Source: Shigella phage Sfk20. From it: a stretch of DNA of 64,000 nucleotides. Of this stretch, positions 2,461-42,588 are shown piece by piece; within the stretch, counting starts at the first letter, position 1, and each line of letters starts with the position of its first letter. The stretch lies in sequence record MW341595; one strand, given 5' to 3'. The notes under the pieces were generated by a model. The model saw only the letters and a list, made by a program, of their open reading frames with translations. It was not told the DNA's origin and did not search any database. The position numbers and the translations under genes are program-made.

Positions 2461-2515
2461 GTTTTTCCTCCATAGAGATTATACTCTAATAAATTAAAGC
2501 ATAATCTCTTATAAA

Positions 2516-4198
2516 TTAAACCATTACAGTAAATCGACCAACTTTCTTCATTTGAAGATGCTGACCATATGCTTGCGGGTCGTGGTCTCTATGTGAAATA
2601 ACAAAAACATTAGTATTTTTTAAACTATCTAAAATAGTTGAAATAGCTTTTACACCTTCAACATCAGTTGCTGAATCAAAAACTTCATCGAGAATTAGTG
2701 TGTTTATTTTAACACCTGAAACTTTTTCAGCAATATCACGCCAAGTAAATAGAAGAGCAATATCAATTCGTGCTTTTTCGCCTTGACTAAATGAAGCATA
2801 ACTAAAATCTTCGCGACCGCGGGATTTAATTGTCTCATTAAATTCTTCATCTAATGTAAACACATAATCCGCTTCCATTATTTTAAGATAATGGTTAATC
2901 TGCTTATTAAATAATGGAATGTACTTTTTAATAATAGCACCTTTAATACCAGAATCTTTGAGCATATCAGTCAAAATTCCTCTGTGGTATTTTTCCATTA
3001 CTAAATTAGTTTTTGTCTTAACAATTTTATCAAGTTCTTCTTGAAGCAGTGCTATTTCATCAGCATGGTCAATAAACTCAGATGATGCTTTTTCTATAGC
3101 TGCTTTAACTTTTTTAGCTTTATCTACAGTCGTGATTAGAGATTGCTTTTTATTGCGAATATCATTCGCCAACGTCTGTTGGGTTTTAATATTATCTCGG
3201 TATTCATCAACGAGAACTTTTAAATTATCACGATGTGTTGAAAGCTGTTCAAACGAATGCGTGCATTCAGAAACTTTATCTTTAATTTTAGAAACAACTT
3301 TATCGCCGGAACTTAATTGTGACAAACAGGTTGGACATAATCCACCTTCGTGATACATATTAATGACTTTATTATATGAGTCAATTTTTGATTTAATTAA
3401 AAATGCTTCTTGACCAATTTTATTAAATGCATCAGTCGGGTCTTCATCCAAAACAATATTAACTAATCTTTCATTAGCTTCTTCTATTTCCGATTTTAGC
3501 GTTCTAGCTTCTTTTGCCAAATCATCATACATATTCTGTAGACGAGTAAGGTTATCACCAGTTAATTTTTTCTGGCGTTCAACGTTATCATTATATATTT
3601 TAATTTGTTGGATAATACTATCTTTTTTAACATCAAGCACTTGGTTTTGTGAATTCAATTCACGTATTAGTGCTTTATTAAGCTTATCCATTTCAGCTAA
3701 TGTTCCTACCTCGAGCAGGTCTTCGACGAGTTTTCTTCTTGCAGGAGTGGATAGGCCCATAAAAGGGGTATATCCAGCCGTGCCGAGTACGACGATCTGT
3801 TTGAAACTGGCATATGACATTCCGATAAGCTGTTCAAATTCTGCTTGGAAATCTTTACTGCTGGCAGATTCATTAAGACGTGTACCGTTAACGGTGATTT
3901 CGAAAACGTTTGGTTTTTGTCCTCTTTTGATATAGTACTTTTTCTCATCATATTCCATCCACAGTTCAACTAAAAGTTCTTTCTTATTCGTGCTGTTTAT
4001 TAATTGACCTTTCTTTACATCACGAAATGGCTTGCCAAAAAGCCCAAATGTGATGGCTTCTAACATAGTAGACTTACCACCGCCATTTCGCCCAGTAATA
4101 AGAGTTTTTTGAACCTTATCTAGTTGAATGTCAATAGGATTTCCACCTACTGACATTATATTTTGATACCTAACTCGGTTTAGTTTAAAATTCTTCAC
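2516..4198 (-). CDS. 46: recombination endonuclease subunit gp46 (Rad50/SbcC-like ATPase)
   Basis: 560 aa; N-terminal Walker A GRNGGGKST, long central coiled coil with CPTC zinc hook, C-terminal signature/Walker B (LILDEVFD). Confidence 0.93.
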   Translation of the reverse strand: MKNFKLNRVRYQNIMSVGGNPIDIQLDKVQKTLITGRNGGGKSTMLEAITFGLFGKPFRDVKKGQLINSTNKKELLVELWMEYDEKKYYIKRGQKPNVFEITVNGTRLNESASSKDFQAEFEQLIGMSYASFKQIVVLGTAGYTPFMGLSTPARRKLVEDLLEVGTLAEMDKLNKALIRELNSQNQVLDVKKDSIIQQIKIYNDNVERQKKLTGDNLTRLQNMYDDLAKEARTLKSEIEEANERLVNIVLDEDPTDAFNKIGQEAFLIKSKIDSYNKVINMYHEGGLCPTCLSQLSSGDKVVSKIKDKVSECTHSFEQLSTHRDNLKVLVDEYRDNIKTQQTLANDIRNKKQSLITTVDKAKKVKAAIEKASSEFIDHADEIALLQEELDKIVKTKTNLVMEKYHRGILTDMLKDSGIKGAIIKKYIPLFNKQINHYLKIMEADYVFTLDEEFNETIKSRGREDFSYASFSQGEKARIDIALLFTWRDIAEKVSGVKINTLILDEVFDSATDVEGVKAISTILDSLKNTNVFVISHRDHDPQAYGQHLQMKKVGRFTVMV

Positions 4199-7774: not shown

Positions 7775-7993
7775 TTATTTCTCTAATATAAAATAAAAAT
7801 CATCATCTGTTAAATGATACCGATAGTTTAATTCTACACCATTAGATTTAAAAGCGGTATCGTACGGATTTTCTGGATCAATATCAATGTCAAGAGCTAA
7901 AACTTCCCTGAGATACATTTTAAGTAAATAGGGAATAGCTTCAACTTCAGGTATTTCTTCCAAGAATCCGGAGAGGTTAATCGTTAGCCTCAT
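7775..7993 (-). CDS. hypothetical protein
   Basis: 72 aa acidic ORF directly downstream of gene 55. Confidence 0.5.
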
Positions 7994-32655: not shown

Positions 32656-33129
32656 TTATTTGAATGATTTGACGTACTGAATAGAGCCTTTGCTATTCAC
32701 GAAAGCGATTTTACCATTTTTGTTATACATGGTAGCAGTACGCTGATAACCATAAGTTTGTTTACCAGATTGATAACCAACTAATGCAAAATTATCTTCA
32801 CCCATTTTATTCTGCTTCGCGCGGATACGTTCATGACCATGTGCCATAAGAACCTTAGCGTCGCCAGTTGCAATGGATCTACGAGTTTTTTCATCTTCAA
32901 CTGTATTAACAAAGTCGTCAAATGAATCAAATTTAGCGTGAGATTTATTATACAGTTTTCCATCTACTGCATAATTATATCCCTGTACATCCATCTCAAC
33001 TTCTGTACCATCATCCAATACAGCAGTGATTTTTTGACCTTTTTTAAATTTCAAAAGATCAGTAAAAGATTCAGCGATAATTTGAGAATTAATAGCTGCT
33101 TCAGTGATAAATTCTTGATATGTTTTCAT
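32656..33129 (-). CDS. candidate internal (capsid-packaged) protein with capsid targeting sequence
   Basis: N-terminus MKTYQEFITEA matches T4 internal-protein CTS consensus MKTYQEFIAE-A with (L/I)xE cleavage site. Confidence 0.6.
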   Translation of the reverse strand: MKTYQEFITEAAINSQIIAESFTDLLKFKKGQKITAVLDDGTEVEMDVQGYNYAVDGKLYNKSHAKFDSFDDFVNTVEDEKTRRSIATGDAKVLMAHGHERIRAKQNKMGEDNFALVGYQSGKQTYGYQRTATMYNKNGKIAFVNSKGSIQYVKSFK

Positions 33130-37476: not shown

Positions 37477-37740
37477 TTATTTCATATTATTGAAATATTC
37501 TTCTGCGATTTCGTCGTTATCGTGGTAAACTTTAGAAGACAGTTTAACATAACCTTCAGCAGTGAACATGTTAATCACAACCTTTACAGTATACCACTGA
37601 CCGTCTTCATTACCCATTACTGCATAGGTTTCAAACATCGGATGGTCAGGACCGATAACTTTAATATCATTCACTGTACGACCGAAATCTTCTGAAACAC
37701 ATTTCATAAAGAAGTTGAACAGTTCGCCGTAATTATCCAT
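37477..37740 (-). CDS. hypothetical protein
   Basis: Start ATG 37738-37740 behind GGAG RBS (MDNYGELFN...); longer track ORF overlaps promoter/leader element. Confidence 0.45.
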   Translation of the reverse strand: MDNYGELFNFFMKCVSEDFGRTVNDIKVIGPDHPMFETYAVMGNEDGQWYTVKVVINMFTAEGYVKLSSKVYHDNDEIAEEYFNNMK

Positions 37741-37782
37741 TTCATTCTCCAAGTTGTTTTTCTGTATCAGTAGTTGATAGTT

Positions 37783-37816
37783 GTATAGTACCATGGAAGA
37801 ACAGGGATGTAAATAG
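37783..37816 (-). promoter_or_regulatory. T4-type early promoter with conserved leader
   Basis: ATTTAC - 18 nt - TACTAT followed by ACAACTATCAACTAC leader. Confidence 0.5.
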
Positions 37817-37946
37817 TTTTGTGAAAAAATTTTTAAAAATTTTTAGGGAATTCTAGGGCAGGGAGGGGCAATTAAAAGATAGGATAATATATTATAAAGG
37901 GTATAAACTAAATGATGCCTAGAGAGGTCCAGAAAGGCCTAGATAC

Positions 37947-37972
37947 CAAAAAGCCCTATCATTTAGATAGGG
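37947..37972 (-). terminator. rho-independent terminator after CTS gene 37981-38544
   Basis: CCCUAUC-UAAAU-GAUAGGG followed by CUUUUU. Confidence 0.65.
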
Positions 37973-37980
37973 ATTTAAAA

Positions 37981-38544
37981 TTATTTGCCTAGTTTAGTTA
38001 TTATAGCTTCGGCAGCAGCTTTTAGCTTAGATGCGGTGTTAATACGATTTTTAATTTCAGTATACGCATCGCCAAGAACATCAAGGCTATCAGAATAAAC
38101 ACTTACACTATTGCGTTCGCTATTTGAAATAGAACCTTTAGTTTTACGATCAAAATCGGTGTACACGTCTTGAAGATCGCGGGCTGCCTTCTTTGCATCA
38201 TCCAATGCATCAAGAGCTTTATTCAAAGCATTAACGTATTTTTTAGTGTCGAACATATTCTTAGAAATTTTAACAGGTGCACGTTCAGGAGTAGCTAATA
38301 CAGATTTAGGAACCTGAGCGCCAGATGCCAATTTCTTAGAAATTTTGAAAAATGCTTTATTGAATTTATTTTCTTGACTCATTGTAAAAGAACTATTATC
38401 GATGTTGTACATTTCAATAGCTTTAGCTTTCCACTTAAGAAAATCGCCGCGGTCTTTTGGGTCCAATTGGAAGAATACTTTAGTAAGATCTGCTTCAGAT
38501 GGTAATTTTGCTGCTTCGGTTAAAAATTCGGCATAGGTTTTCAT
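37981..38544 (-). CDS. candidate internal (capsid-packaged) protein with capsid targeting sequence
   Basis: N-terminus MKTYAEFLTEA (CTS consensus with LTE-A cleavage site); own terminator hairpin downstream. Confidence 0.6.
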   Translation of the reverse strand: MKTYAEFLTEAAKLPSEADLTKVFFQLDPKDRGDFLKWKAKAIEMYNIDNSSFTMSQENKFNKAFFKISKKLASGAQVPKSVLATPERAPVKISKNMFDTKKYVNALNKALDALDDAKKAARDLQDVYTDFDRKTKGSISNSERNSVSVYSDSLDVLGDAYTEIKNRINTASKLKAAAEAIITKLGK

Positions 38545-38634
38545 TTAAAATCCTTGAAATAATTTATCGGTTGGTTATTAATTATTTATTACTTTGTTAC
38601 TATCCGTAGCAGCATTCTCTATGTGATTCAAACT

Positions 38635-38662
38635 AAAAAAGCCCCAACCTTTCAGTCGGGGC
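38635..38662 (-). terminator. rho-independent terminator after CTS gene 38671-39144
   Basis: GCCCCGAC-UGAAAGG-UUGGGGC followed by UUUUUU. Confidence 0.7.
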
Positions 38663-38670
38663 TAAGAATG

Positions 38671-39144
38671 TTATTTGATTTGTTTAGCAGACCAAATGCG
38701 GTCTTTAATAATTTTTTGAATGTCTTCAACATACTCAAGAGAGTGAACATGTGGATTATCTTTGAAACTATAAGCACGGGCTAACTTTTGGCCTTCGGTT
38801 TTGATTACTAAAAGCTCTTTAAGGATAGCTTCATATTTAGAGATAATTCCTTTAACAATATTTTTTTCTTGTGCAACTTTAGGATCTGCTTTAGGAGCAG
38901 GTTTACCCGAAGCCTTTGCAAAAGCAGCGCCAGTAGCAACTAGACTTTTCCAGGCCATACTAACTGCATTTCCCGTAAATCCTTCTGCTTTCATGTCGCG
39001 AGCAAATTGGAATCGTGATTCGTCAGAAGCATCTTTATAGGAATATTTACCCGCTGCAATGGCTGCTTTTGCGACAGCTTGAATTTCGGTGCTAGATGCT
39101 TCATTTAACACCGCTTCATTTAAAAATTGAGCATATGATTTCAT
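38671..39144 (-). CDS. candidate internal (capsid-packaged) protein with capsid targeting sequence
   Basis: N-terminus MKSYAQFLNEA (CTS-like with LNE-A cleavage site); TATAAATA late promoter upstream and terminator hairpin downstream. Confidence 0.6.
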   Translation of the reverse strand: MKSYAQFLNEAVLNEASSTEIQAVAKAAIAAGKYSYKDASDESRFQFARDMKAEGFTGNAVSMAWKSLVATGAAFAKASGKPAPKADPKVAQEKNIVKGIISKYEAILKELLVIKTEGQKLARAYSFKDNPHVHSLEYVEDIQKIIKDRIWSAKQIK

Positions 39145-39184
39145 CTTATTTCCTGTTTTAATTCGTGGATTTAATATACTACTA

Positions 39185-39192
39185 TATTTATA
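39185..39192 (-). promoter_or_regulatory. late promoter (TATAAATA) for CTS gene 38671-39144
   Basis: Plus strand reads TATTTATA = minus-strand TATAAATA, about 40 nt upstream of ATG. Confidence 0.6.
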
Positions 39193-39194
39193 CT

Positions 39195-39221
39195 AAAAAG
39201 CCCCAACCTTTCGGTCGGGGC
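39195..39221 (-). terminator. rho-independent terminator ending the tRNA/small-RNA transcription unit
   Basis: GCCCCGACC-GAAAGG-UUGGGGC followed by UUUUU; near-duplicate of the 38635-38662 hairpin. Confidence 0.7.
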
Positions 39222-39239
39222 TAAGCCTTGCGGCAACCT

Positions 39240-39520
39240 TGTCGGGATTCCACCTGCTAAGGCAAGTGTTTGTACGAAACGCCGGGATTCGAACCCGGTT
39301 ATTAAGCAGTTGACGCTACTCAATATTTTTAAAAGGCCATATCTCGACCATATCCGAACGTTCCGTCAAAAACGCTACTCGGCTTACGGCAAAGATATTT
39401 CCTCGAATCGATAATTCGGTGCGCCGTTTCAGCTGTGATAGTAAAGAACCAGAACACAGTAAAACTGTGGGAGGAACTATACTCCAGGGAACATCAGTCC
39501 GACGACTTACCGGTAGCGAC
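39240..39520 (-). ncRNA. candidate small stable RNA region (position of T4 species 1/2 RNAs) including a tRNA-like element
   Basis: No ORF; sits downstream of tRNA array and upstream of a strong terminator; T-arm-like CCGGG-ATTCGAA-CCCGG at 39282-39298 with pairable acceptor-like ends (about 39275-39365). Confidence 0.35.
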
Positions 39521-39528
39521 CCGGTTTC

Positions 39529-39879
39529 TTAATATTCTTTTAAAGCATCAATCTGTTCACGGCGTTTACGCCATAAATCAATTGCTTCATACGCAGATTC
39601 AGCATTTCGAATTAGTCGGCATTTGTGTAAAGACTTGTGATTTTGATATTGTGTAGATAACGAAATTTTATCTAAAAGGTCTTTACGTTCAAAGTATTCG
39701 TAACCATCTAAGCCAAATGAACGATTTTTGAGAAATTGCCAATGACCATATTCGTTTTCGACATAAACATAATCCGCGTGTTGATAAAGCAAATTAATTA
39801 CACGTTCAGAAATAACAGTGTCATTGTGATTAAAATAGAATGTTAAATCATGAACTACTAAATAAACATTACCTTTCAT
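39529..39879 (-). CDS. hypothetical protein
   Basis: 116 aa ORF directly downstream of tRNA-Arg. Confidence 0.45.
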   Translation of the reverse strand: MKGNVYLVVHDLTFYFNHNDTVISERVINLLYQHADYVYVENEYGHWQFLKNRSFGLDGYEYFERKDLLDKISLSTQYQNHKSLHKCRLIRNAESAYEAIDLWRKRREQIDALKEY

Positions 39880-40150: not shown

Positions 40151-40225
40151 TGGTGGCCCTGGGTGGAATTGAACCACCATCTGGCGATTATGAGTCGCTT
40201 GCTTGAACCTTCCAGCTACAGGGCC
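40151..40225 (-). tRNA. tRNA with anticodon CAU (Ile2/Met type; T4 tRNA-Ile equivalent)
   Basis: 75 nt; acceptor GGCCCUG/CAGGGCC, anticodon loop CUCAUAA, T-arm GGUGG-UUCAAUU-CCACC, CCA encoded. Confidence 0.85.
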
Positions 40226-40226
40226 T

Positions 40227-40302
40227 TGGTGCTGATTGACGGAATCGAACCGCCGACCTTCTCATTACAAGTGAGTTGCTCTACCTACTGAGCTAAATCA
40301 GC
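40227..40302 (-). tRNA. tRNA-Thr (anticodon UGU)
   Basis: 76 nt; acceptor GCUGAUU/AAUCAGC, D-arm GCUC-AGUAGGUA-GAGC, anticodon loop CUUGUAA, CCA encoded. Confidence 0.88.
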
Positions 40303-40307
40303 AAAAC

Positions 40308-40397
40308 TGGCGGAGGCGATAGGATTTGAACCTATGAGTCGCCGGAGCGACTGCCGGTTTTCAAGACCGGTGCATTAAACCACTCTGCCACGCCTCC
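40308..40397 (-). tRNA. tRNA-Ser (anticodon UGA), long variable arm
   Basis: 90 nt; acceptor GGAGGCG/CGCCUCC, anticodon stem-loop CCGGU-CUUGAAA-ACCGG, long variable arm, T-arm AUAGG-UUCAAAU-CCUAU, CCA encoded. Confidence 0.88.
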
Positions 40398-40399
40398 AG

Positions 40400-40473
40400 T
40401 CTCCATACAAGGATTTGAACCTTGGACCTCCTGATCCCAAATCAGGCGCTCTACCAAACTGAGCTACACGGAG
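40400..40473 (-). tRNA. tRNA-Pro (anticodon UGG)
   Basis: 74 nt; acceptor CUCCGUG/UAUGGAG (two G-U pairs), anticodon stem-loop CCUGA-UUUGGGA-UCAGG, T-arm CAAGG-UUCAAAU-CCUUG, CCA not encoded. Confidence 0.85.
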
Positions 40474-40483
40474 TAAATTAAAT

Positions 40484-40557
<74 letters not shown>

Positions 40558-40562
40558 AAATT

Positions 40563-40649
40563 TGGTGCGAGAAGTGGGACTCGAACCCACAAGGAAATCA
40601 TTCCGCAGCATTTTAAGTGCTGTGCCTTTACCAATTTGACCATTCTCGC
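40563..40649 (-). tRNA. tRNA-Leu (anticodon UAA), long variable arm
   Basis: 87 nt; acceptor GCGAGAA/UUCUCGC, anticodon stem-loop CAGCA-CUUAAAA-UGCUG, T-arm GUGGG-UUCGAGU-CCCAC, CCA encoded. Confidence 0.88.
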
Positions 40650-42258: not shown

Positions 42259-42516
42259 TTATTTTAAATCTTCTAATCGTTTCTTCATCTTAGAACCATT
42301 TTTAGCAATTTCTCCTGCATCGGAGCATAATGCTAAAAGTGCTTTAACTTTAGTTTGGTCTCCTTTAAAAGATGAAGGATCGACTGCAGCAGCAAGTTCT
42401 TTAATACGAGAGAAAAGACGCTCAGCTTCAGCTAAAGCCATTCCAAGCTTTACTTCCATACCGTGAGAAGATTCAGTGATAGTGGTTTTTGTAGCAAACT
42501 CTTTGAAAGTTTTCAT
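42259..42516 (-). CDS. hypothetical protein with variant CTS-like N-terminus (occupies the T4 ipI locus)
   Basis: 85 aa; MKTFKEFATKTTITE-S resembles CTS with an I-x-E cleavage site at residue 15; early promoter upstream. Confidence 0.5.
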   Translation of the reverse strand: MKTFKEFATKTTITESSHGMEVKLGMALAEAERLFSRIKELAAAVDPSSFKGDQTKVKALLALCSDAGEIAKNGSKMKKRLEDLK

Positions 42517-42544
42517 TTTATTTTCCTAATTAATTTTGATGAGA

Positions 42545-42578
42545 TAATAGTATCACTACCTCATCAGCATGTAAACAA
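42545..42578 (-). promoter_or_regulatory. T4-type early promoter
   Basis: GTTTAC - 18 nt - TACTAT upstream of ORF 42259-42516. Confidence 0.6.
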
Positions 42579-42588
42579 CTTTGTGAAA

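Follow-up and report, generated by a model that had tools for sequence, protein, structure and literature searches.

The window analyzed here is a stretch of 64,000 nucleotides (nt) from Shigella phage Sfk20 (sequence record MW341595). Two genes on its minus strand, encoding proteins of 157 and 187 amino acids (aa), lie between the terminator of the rnaC region, which ends the tRNA unit, and gene e.8. The phage is a Tequatrovirus. Positions 37800-39300, which include both genes, are 99.5% identical to Shigella phage pSs-1 and match 671 phage records, nearly all of them from Tequatrovirus and related T-even-type phages. The coordinates, strand, and N-termini of the two open reading frames (ORFs), given in a preliminary description of this DNA, agree with the ORF call (Table 1).

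Two cassettes with capsid-targeting leaders

Each of the two genes has its own late-promoter motif, Shine-Dalgarno sequence, and terminator, in keeping with the earlier view of them as self-contained cassettes next to the tRNA array. The exact late-promoter motif reported for the 157-aa gene, TATAAATA, was recovered. It is annotated here as a late promoter in the GenBank records SA21RB and fPS-65, and its position is conserved in RB32, Jiaodavirus phiKp_22, and Karamvirus KMB17. The motif preceding the 187-aa gene, AATAAATA, is found identical and in the same position ahead of this gene in PhAPEC2 and RB69. In every cassette examined, from four genera in total, one of these two consensus matches is located approximately 25-40 nt ahead of the ATG. 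The gene for Ip4, a bona fide internal protein (IP), also has TATAAATA, 34 nt upstream. From the promoter motifs, we infer late expression of both genes.

A terminator scan of the minus strand detected three terminator-like hairpins, at the ends of the tRNA/rnaC unit, the 157-aa gene, and the 187-aa gene. The claim of one terminator per gene is thus confirmed, but the three are not near-identical repeats as had been described. The repeat GCCCCAACCTTTCRGTCGGGGC was found at two sites only, at the ends of the 157-aa gene (38641-38662) and of the tRNA/rnaC unit (39200-39221). The terminator of the 187-aa gene, CCCTATCTAAATGATAGGG, is a different sequence and has only its GGGCTTTTT end in common with these copies. 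A 31-nt direct repeat, 97% identical, is located at both sides of the 157-aa cassette, and the GenBank note on the RB32 homologue of this gene reads "flanked by 34 bp imperfect direct repeat". The T4 counterpart of the rnaC-unit terminator adjoins GGTATCTAAGCC directly.

Table 1. Features of the two cassettes and their borders (positions in the window; a slash in a motif marks the predicted cut)
Feature	Position	Strand	Remarks
Rho-independent terminator of the tRNA/rnaD/rnaC unit	39199..39222	-	10 pairs, then T-run; repeat copy 1; array attachment point
Exact late-promoter motif TATAAATA	39185..39192	-	40 nt before the ATG of the 157-aa gene
Shine-Dalgarno AGGAAA, 157-aa gene	39149..39154	-	Direct sequence reading
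Codons 1-15 of the 157-aa gene	39100..39144	-	Putative capsid targeting sequence and tandem gp21-type motifs FLNE/A, VLNE/A
157-aa pre-protein gene	38671..39144	-	ORF call; phrog_2280; AF2 model, pLDDT 76; mature pI 9.5
Terminator of the 157-aa gene	38640..38663	-	Repeat copy 2; 97% identical over 31 nt to 39195-39225
AATAAATA, 7/8 late-promoter consensus match	38583..38590	-	38 nt before the ATG of the 187-aa gene
Shine-Dalgarno AAGGA, 187-aa gene	38551..38555	-	Direct sequence reading
187-aa pre-protein gene	37981..38544	-	ORF call; AF2 model, pLDDT 59; mature pI 9.5; distant relatives keep the leader
Terminator of the 187-aa gene	37954..37972	-	Stem unlike the other two; ends in GGGCTTTTT, the downstream junction of the array
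Right-hand flank GGTATCTAGGCC...	37917..37953	-	Common to T4, RB32, and FriedrichMiescher; shared breakpoint (junction alignment)

The 157-aa protein starts with MKSYAQFLNE and the 187-aa protein with MKTYAEFLTE, the next residue being Ala in both. In T4, only the first ten residues of IPIII are needed for incorporation into the head, and mutagenesis of this protein demonstrated that residues 4 and 7 serve in targeting and residues 8 and 10 in processing (reviewed in PMC9026906). This 10-residue capsid targeting sequence (CTS) by itself suffices to package foreign proteins, and the protease gp21 cleaves after L/I-x-E (PMC9026906). Both proteins from the window have the targeting residues Y4 and F7 as well as a gp21-type site, namely L8-N-E10/A in the 157-aa protein and L8-T-E10/A in the 187-aa one. 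The pattern MK[ST][YF]x[EQ]F[IL]xE was found in 3 of the 601 ATG-initiated frames of at least 40 aa in the window, compared with 2.8e-5 matches expected by chance. In 20 shuffles, used as a control, the pattern had no matches. The third match in the window is Ip4, whose gene adjoins gene e. With these residues and this chance expectation, the assignment of both leaders as CTSs with an (L/I)xE motif, made in the preliminary description, is upheld.

Maturation after residue 10, also proposed there for both proteins, fits the 187-aa protein but is less likely for the 157-aa protein. The latter has a second site, L13-N-E15/A, and in the alignment of its family E15, not E10, is the invariant column preceding the conserved mature start ASS(S/T)(D/E). 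Because of this invariant position, the mature N-terminus of the 157-aa protein is probably A16 rather than A11. Relatives of the 187-aa protein with approximately 20-30% identity, found in Enterobacter phage vB-EclM_KMB17 and in metagenomes, all start with M-x-x-F-x-(E/Q)-F-(I/L)-x-E. In these distant relatives, E10 is invariant, and a second (I/L/V)-x-E is located right before the conserved AGERMTKxKWQSAMD.

The CTS is likewise kept within the family of the 157-aa protein. In total, the CTS signal and the promoter motif were retained in relatives with identity down to approximately 25-30%, belonging to four genera. Since the CTS survives where the protein bodies are only about 20-30% identical and the DNA is unalignable, the comparison implies that the leader is under selection as a peptide and is not kept as a recombination relic would be.

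Distribution, exchange, and domain composition of the cassettes

Relatives of the 157-aa protein were found in 511 phage records; in 467 of these, at least 80% of its length is covered. The 187-aa protein has relatives in 164 phage records, and in 163 of these the identity is at least 95%. Both genes occur together in approximately 127 records, and T4, T2, and many relatives lack one or both. The preliminary description had placed the IP genes of T4 elsewhere, and indeed the rnaC-e.8 interval of T4 contains no gene. Absence of both genes from T4 follows from the fact that its rnaC terminator runs straight into the upstream region of e.8. Because the genes are so widespread, T4 is the exception.

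When the junctions were aligned for T4, which has neither gene, for RB32 and FriedrichMiescher, which have the 157-aa gene alone, and for the window, which has both, a single breakpoint emerged, GGGGCTTTTT/GGTATCTAGGCC. Thus, the number of cassettes stacked at the 3' edge of the rnaC terminator varies from zero to two. Repeated stem-loop sequences flank the 157-aa gene, and the breakpoints of all four phages fall within them. This organization resembles that of the promoter-early stem-loop (PeSL) cassettes and the analogous IP-associated elements (Arbiol et al., 2010), in which a promoter and a terminator accompany a single accessory gene, stem-loops repeated at both ends coincide with the breakpoints of insertions and deletions between related phages, transcription is insulated, and the unit is exchanged between genomes. 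Modular shuffling of a similar kind was described for the IP loci in the same paper (PMC2839356). Unlike the cassettes described here, PeSL cassettes carry a sigma-70-like/T4 early promoter; here, the promoter is of the late TATAAATA type, and the repeat is a GC-rich intrinsic terminator.

Evidence for exchange between genera was found for the 187-aa gene, which is 95.9% identical at the nucleotide level in the window and in Mosigvirus PhAPEC2. The flanking e.6, e.8, and 116-aa ORF are 74-87% identical between the same two phages, and the 157-aa gene is 76.6% identical. This excess of identity over the neighboring genes indicates that the single 187-aa cassette was transferred between genera recently. 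The spacer 3' of the 187-aa gene is also covered by the identity of approximately 96% (window 37981-38544 against positions 2501-3064 of the Mosigvirus locus L009). In RB69, the overlapping pair ORF149c/ORF148c (L008 2338-2900) appears to be a frameshifted 187-aa gene, in which the first 122 residues are near-identical before the frame is lost; the AATAAATA motif and the leader are intact in this copy.

The layout of the site is recurrent: the last tRNA (with or without rnaC), a terminator, TATAAATA, a CTS gene, a terminator, an early promoter, and e.8. Outside of Tequatrovirus, it was found in Mosigvirus (PhAPEC2, RB69), Jiaodavirus (Klebsiella phage phiKp_22), and Karamvirus (Enterobacter phage KMB17). 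Shuffling of IP genes was previously described as limited to two loci, with IP genes absent elsewhere in T-even genomes (Arbiol et al., 2010, PMC2839356), and the Ips of T4 were likewise assigned to two loci (Silas et al., 2025, PMC12373910). In the literature, no paper describing a third IP site after the tRNA array was found. Judged by gene order and leader sequences, the site between the tRNA/rnaC terminator and e.8 is a conserved third locus for putative IPs, present in four genera.

The predicted mature proteins are 16.0 kDa (157-aa) and 19.7 kDa (187-aa), both with an isoelectric point (pI) of 9.5. For comparison, the pI values of full-length T4 IPI-III and of Ip4 and Ip5 from the window are 8.9-9.5. 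Structural models by AlphaFold2 (AF2), with a predicted local distance difference test (pLDDT) score of 76 for the 157-aa and 59 for the 187-aa protein, have the same architecture, consisting of a leader helix, a small helical N-domain, a disordered Pro/Ala/Lys-rich linker, and a long helical hairpin. In the 157-aa protein, these parts correspond to residues approximately 16-75 (N-terminal helical domain), 76-92 (linker), and 88-154 (C-terminal helical hairpin); in the 187-aa protein, to approximately 17-73, 74-99, and 100-186, respectively. An A7 homopolymer (38861-38867, minus strand) was observed within the linker of the 157-aa gene, between the regions for the N- and C-domains. In the databases, many relatives end or lose the frame at this homopolymer, so that only the N-domain is left (fPS-65 g136c, 112 aa; others of 93, 97, and 108 aa); it could be a slippage hot spot or the site of a homopolymer sequencing error.

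Both proteins belong to phrog_2280, a PHROGs family of unknown function. For neither protein did Pfam, NCBIfam, or PADLOC yield a family scoring above threshold, and no match was found in a sequence search of the PDB, consistent with the earlier statement that no motifs are recognizable in them. An exhaustive HMMER search with the 187-aa protein among 1.8 billion representatives found one diverged full-length relative (P0027). Direct homology of the two proteins was not established: BLASTP aligned the leader only, and hhalign reached a probability of only approximately 40%, on the C-terminal hairpin. At the DNA level, similarity between the two genes is limited to the CTS/start region (42 nt at 76%). 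The apparent link between the proteins is provided by a chimera from an Enterobacter phage (P0090), in which a 187-type N-domain (E = 1e-6) is joined to a 157-type C-domain (E = 2e-7), as well as by the PHROG grouping itself; both proteins fall into phrog_2280 because this chimera bridges them.

Other domain combinations were also found. Klebsiella and Yersinia phages combine the N-domain of the 157-aa protein with another C-domain, and in the 187-aa family, two or more further types of C-domains are found attached to the N-domain. A relationship of the Klebsiella-type C-domain to the 187-aa C-domain was considered and ruled out (hhalign probability of 1%). From these sequence comparisons, the family is seen to be modular, combining a putative CTS, one of two N-domains, a Pro/Ala/Lys linker, and exchangeable C-terminal helical domains.

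Predicted packaging and role of the two proteins

The known IPs of the window phage include Ip4 and Ip5. Ip4 (32656-33129, minus strand) is encoded beside denV and e and is identical to Ip4 of RB32; its TATAAATA is located inside the 3' end of denV. Ip5 (42259-42516, minus strand) is encoded at the ipI site, is identical to Ip5 of RB32, and has a longer IPI-type leader (MKTFKEFATKTTITE/S). No Ip1, Ip2, or Ip3 was found in this phage, and its IP complement consists of Ip4, Ip5, and, putatively, the two new proteins. A homology comparison with known IPs, suggested in the preliminary description, gave no match past the leader. Thus, once the leader was removed, neither protein had similarity to T4 IPI-III, Ip4, or Ip5, and a full-length comparison with Ip7 and Ip9 detected no similarity past the leader.

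The genes at the ipI locus (T4 ipI, Ip5, Ip7, and Ip9) have a conserved upstream element resembling the T4 early promoter, GTTTAC...GTGATACTAT. Its sites are at 42517-42587 (minus strand) in the window, at 7880-7950 in locus L002, and at 2990-3057 and 3322-3391 in locus L003. This element is missing from Ip4 as well as from the two new genes, so the IP genes have at least two regulatory front ends.

In the RB32 annotation, Ip4, Ip5, Ip7, and Ip9 are named, and the homologue of the 157-aa protein is left as "hypothetical protein". Among the cluster members whose names were read, all but two are "hypothetical"; the exceptions are the UniRef name "Internal head protein" for the relative from Klebsiella phage KPKp and a label from JGI that is evidently wrong. 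More than 30 IP variants were counted by Comeau et al. (2007), as cited in PMC2839356. Both proteins are probably previously unnamed members of the IP class, as compared with Ip1-5, Ip7, and Ip9 out of the series that also includes Ip6, Ip8, and Ip10.

With IPI, IPII, and IPIII of T4, the two proteins share the N-terminal CTS (MKTYQEFIAE in IPII and IPIII), the gp21 L/I-x-E motif, and a basic mature protein, and the genes are likewise non-essential accessory ones, polymorphic among T-even phages. By analogy, a common fate would be expected, namely entry into the prohead core, cleavage, and co-injection with the DNA. They differ from the T4 proteins in having no sequence similarity past the signal and in the location of their genes. 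In mature IPI*, the fold is compact and contains two beta sheets (PMC3012670), whereas the new proteins are predicted to be all-helical and two-domain. They resemble Ip4, Ip5, Ip7, and Ip9 of RB32, and more generally the Ip4-10 series (Repoila et al., 1994), in the CTS-type leader and the small, basic body. In both groups, the genes lie in cassettes with repeated regulatory sequences at their borders, and several such genes can coexist in one genome, as the new genes do with those for Ip4 and Ip5 in the window. The new proteins are nevertheless non-homologous to these four, and the early-type element of the ipI locus is absent from their genes. The T4 ADP-ribosyltransferase Alt is also packaged into the head, processed by gp21, and injected with the DNA while being non-essential, and the new proteins, by analogy, may resemble it in these respects. 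In contrast to them, Alt is a large, low-copy enzyme whose short propeptide is of a different kind, and the new proteins have no recognizable catalytic domain.

The best explanation of these data is that the two genes encode unnamed internal proteins of the T-even type, packaged in the head and injected, which most likely neutralize host defense; we assign this reading a probability of about 0.6. All computational checks made here agreed with its core, namely two CTS-bearing IP genes, each in a separate late cassette next to the tRNA array. On its sequence features, packaging and processing of both proteins are highly probable. Promoters dependent on gp55 would drive synthesis of the pre-proteins late in infection, and the 10-residue CTS, with Y4 and F7 in targeting, would dock them into the gp22 scaffolding core of the prohead. 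The prohead protease gp21 would then cut both proteins behind L8-x-E10, and the 157-aa protein probably a second time behind L13-x-E15. Trimming would release basic mature proteins of approximately 16 and 20 kDa, retained in the head with the DNA, where the Lys-rich linker plausibly contacts DNA phosphates. The mature proteins would enter the next host together with the genome and there most likely neutralize a defense directed against incoming modified DNA. The cassettes themselves would be gained, lost, and exchanged via recombination at the terminator sequences.

The anti-defense role is, by analogy with known IPs, the better bet for both proteins. The preliminary description had named IPI as the sole IP with a known function, which is out of date: Ip1, Ip2, and Ip3 each inhibit a distinct GmrSD enzyme (Silas et al., 2025, PMC12373910). 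By analogy with Ip1-3, the most probable target would be a subtype of GmrSD-like type IV restriction enzyme, a target that we can propose only tentatively.

Several observations weigh against this interpretation. The genes are located neither at the ipI site nor at the ipII/ipIII site beside e; the two-locus placement, however, describes the known IPs, and the mechanism does not require it. The early-promoter-type element GTTTAC...TAnnnT of the ipI-locus genes is missing, and the promoter motif of the 187-aa gene matches the consensus at 7 of 8 positions only. The 187-aa protein is almost invariant across the records, which is unexpected for a fast arms race, although recent horizontal spread could explain it. 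A structure comparison, also suggested in the preliminary description and performed here on the models, returned generic helical hairpins, with no likeness to IPI* or any other known inhibitor. As the folds are generic, the mature proteins point to no particular target. In addition, ip4-10 gave no reproducible GmrSD inhibition (PMC12373910), so a CTS does not guarantee such activity. Finally, the literature search turned up no data from virion mass spectrometry, N-terminal sequencing, or injection, either on these proteins or on related ones.

Some of the same observations would fit a reading in which the proteins are packaged and injected but have a target other than type IV restriction, such as another nuclease, an abortive-infection system, or host take-over of the Alt type. 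Thus, the mature regions have nothing in common with Ip1-3, the predicted fold is all-helical in contrast to the beta-rich IPI*, ip4-10 lacked reproducible activity, and Alt demonstrates that packaged proteins can have other roles (PMC9026906). We consider this possible but rather unlikely, since all three T-even IPs of known target inhibit a GmrSD-family enzyme, and ip1-10 include no known inhibitor of five GmrSD systems that act on T-even phages (PMC12373910).

The main rival to the proposed anti-defense role is an architectural, IPIII-like one, in which the proteins are packaged via the CTS to neutralize DNA charge and to assist in core or head assembly, standing in for IPII and IPIII. Both proteins are basic, with Lys-rich Pro/Ala/Lys linkers, and lysines of IPs are known to contact packaged DNA (PMC3012670). 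In an IPIII mutant, the assembly rate is halved, the burst is approximately 40% of normal, and more polyheads are formed (PMC9026906). The absence of Ip1-3 from the window phage, the similar size of the mature 187-aa protein and IPIII*, and the high conservation of the former agree with such a role as well. Nevertheless, T4, T2, and the many relatives without one or both genes need no replacement at this site. Presence/absence polymorphism, horizontal transfer, and swaps of C-domains typify accessory counter-defense genes, and IPIII itself is now known to be a GmrSD inhibitor (PMC12373910). An architectural role is accordingly judged unlikely.

Least probable by far is that the proteins are not packaged, being ordinary late cytoplasmic proteins with a CTS-like N-terminus left over from recombination with the 5' ends of IP genes: DNA similarity between the two genes is confined to the CTS/start region, IP 5' regions are known recombination substrates (PMC2839356), and no proteomic support for packaging was found in the literature search, but the targeting and cleavage residues survive where the bodies are highly diverged, a second cleavage motif directly precedes the conserved mature N-terminus, and the CTS of T4 alone packages foreign proteins (PMC9026906).

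The internal-protein reading may be extended further, to a scenario that is speculative and has the odds well against it. The site after the tRNA array would be a genus-spanning integration platform for modular injected proteins, producing new inhibitors by shuffling of domains and cassettes, and the two proteins would supply the inhibitors still missing for some GmrSD-type systems that restrict T-even phages and resist Ip1-10. In such proteins, an N-domain of type A or B would be a carrier, the Pro/Ala/Lys linker would contact DNA, and the exchangeable C-terminal hairpin would act as the effector.

Of all phage molecules, the host encounters injected internal proteins first. Relatives of the two proteins are encoded by many therapeutic candidates against E. 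coli, Shigella, Yersinia, and Klebsiella, with nearly all records labeled "hypothetical"; if they are indeed IPs, the two proteins are concrete candidate determinants of host range. The two-locus view of the IP genes would be corrected by the third locus, from which the reference genome, T4, is an exception. The advance is incremental, extending a known class by two widespread, putative members and a locus and introducing no new principle.

Neighboring genes and RNA region

The minus-strand gene order in the region is gene 1, 57A, 57B, Ip5, trna.4/.3/.2, an extra ORF, and ten tRNA genes, followed by the 116-aa ORF, the rnaD and rnaC homologous region, the terminator, the 157-aa gene, the 187-aa gene, e.8, e.7, and e.6. 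The rnaC and rnaD RNAs of T4 are stable RNAs of unknown function. For the homologous region in the window (39222-39528 and 39529-39879, minus strand, listed together with the 116-aa ORF), an Rfam search found no family. The 116-aa ORF, located between the rnaD/rnaC region and tRNA-Arg, belongs to phrog_3355 and is RB69ORF150c-like; T4 has no gene there.

The tRNA set consists of 10 genes, including those for Asn, Tyr, and a tRNA with the CAT anticodon, while T4 has eight tRNA genes and a different set. Rfam matches to Plastid-ycf2 (plus strand), sX4, and YrlA at 40153-40649 were rejected; all are below threshold, lie on tRNA genes, and are artifacts of tRNA-like structure. Relative to the tRNA genes, the Plastid-ycf2 matches are antisense, and those to sX4 and YrlA are on the same strand.

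For e.8, the ORF given by the program (37477-37794, minus strand) encodes 105 aa. Judging from the PHROG match and from the e.8 of T4, which has 87 aa, the gene really starts at 37740. It is preceded at 37813-37785 by a site resembling an early promoter, with TTTACA and TACTAT separated by 17 nt.

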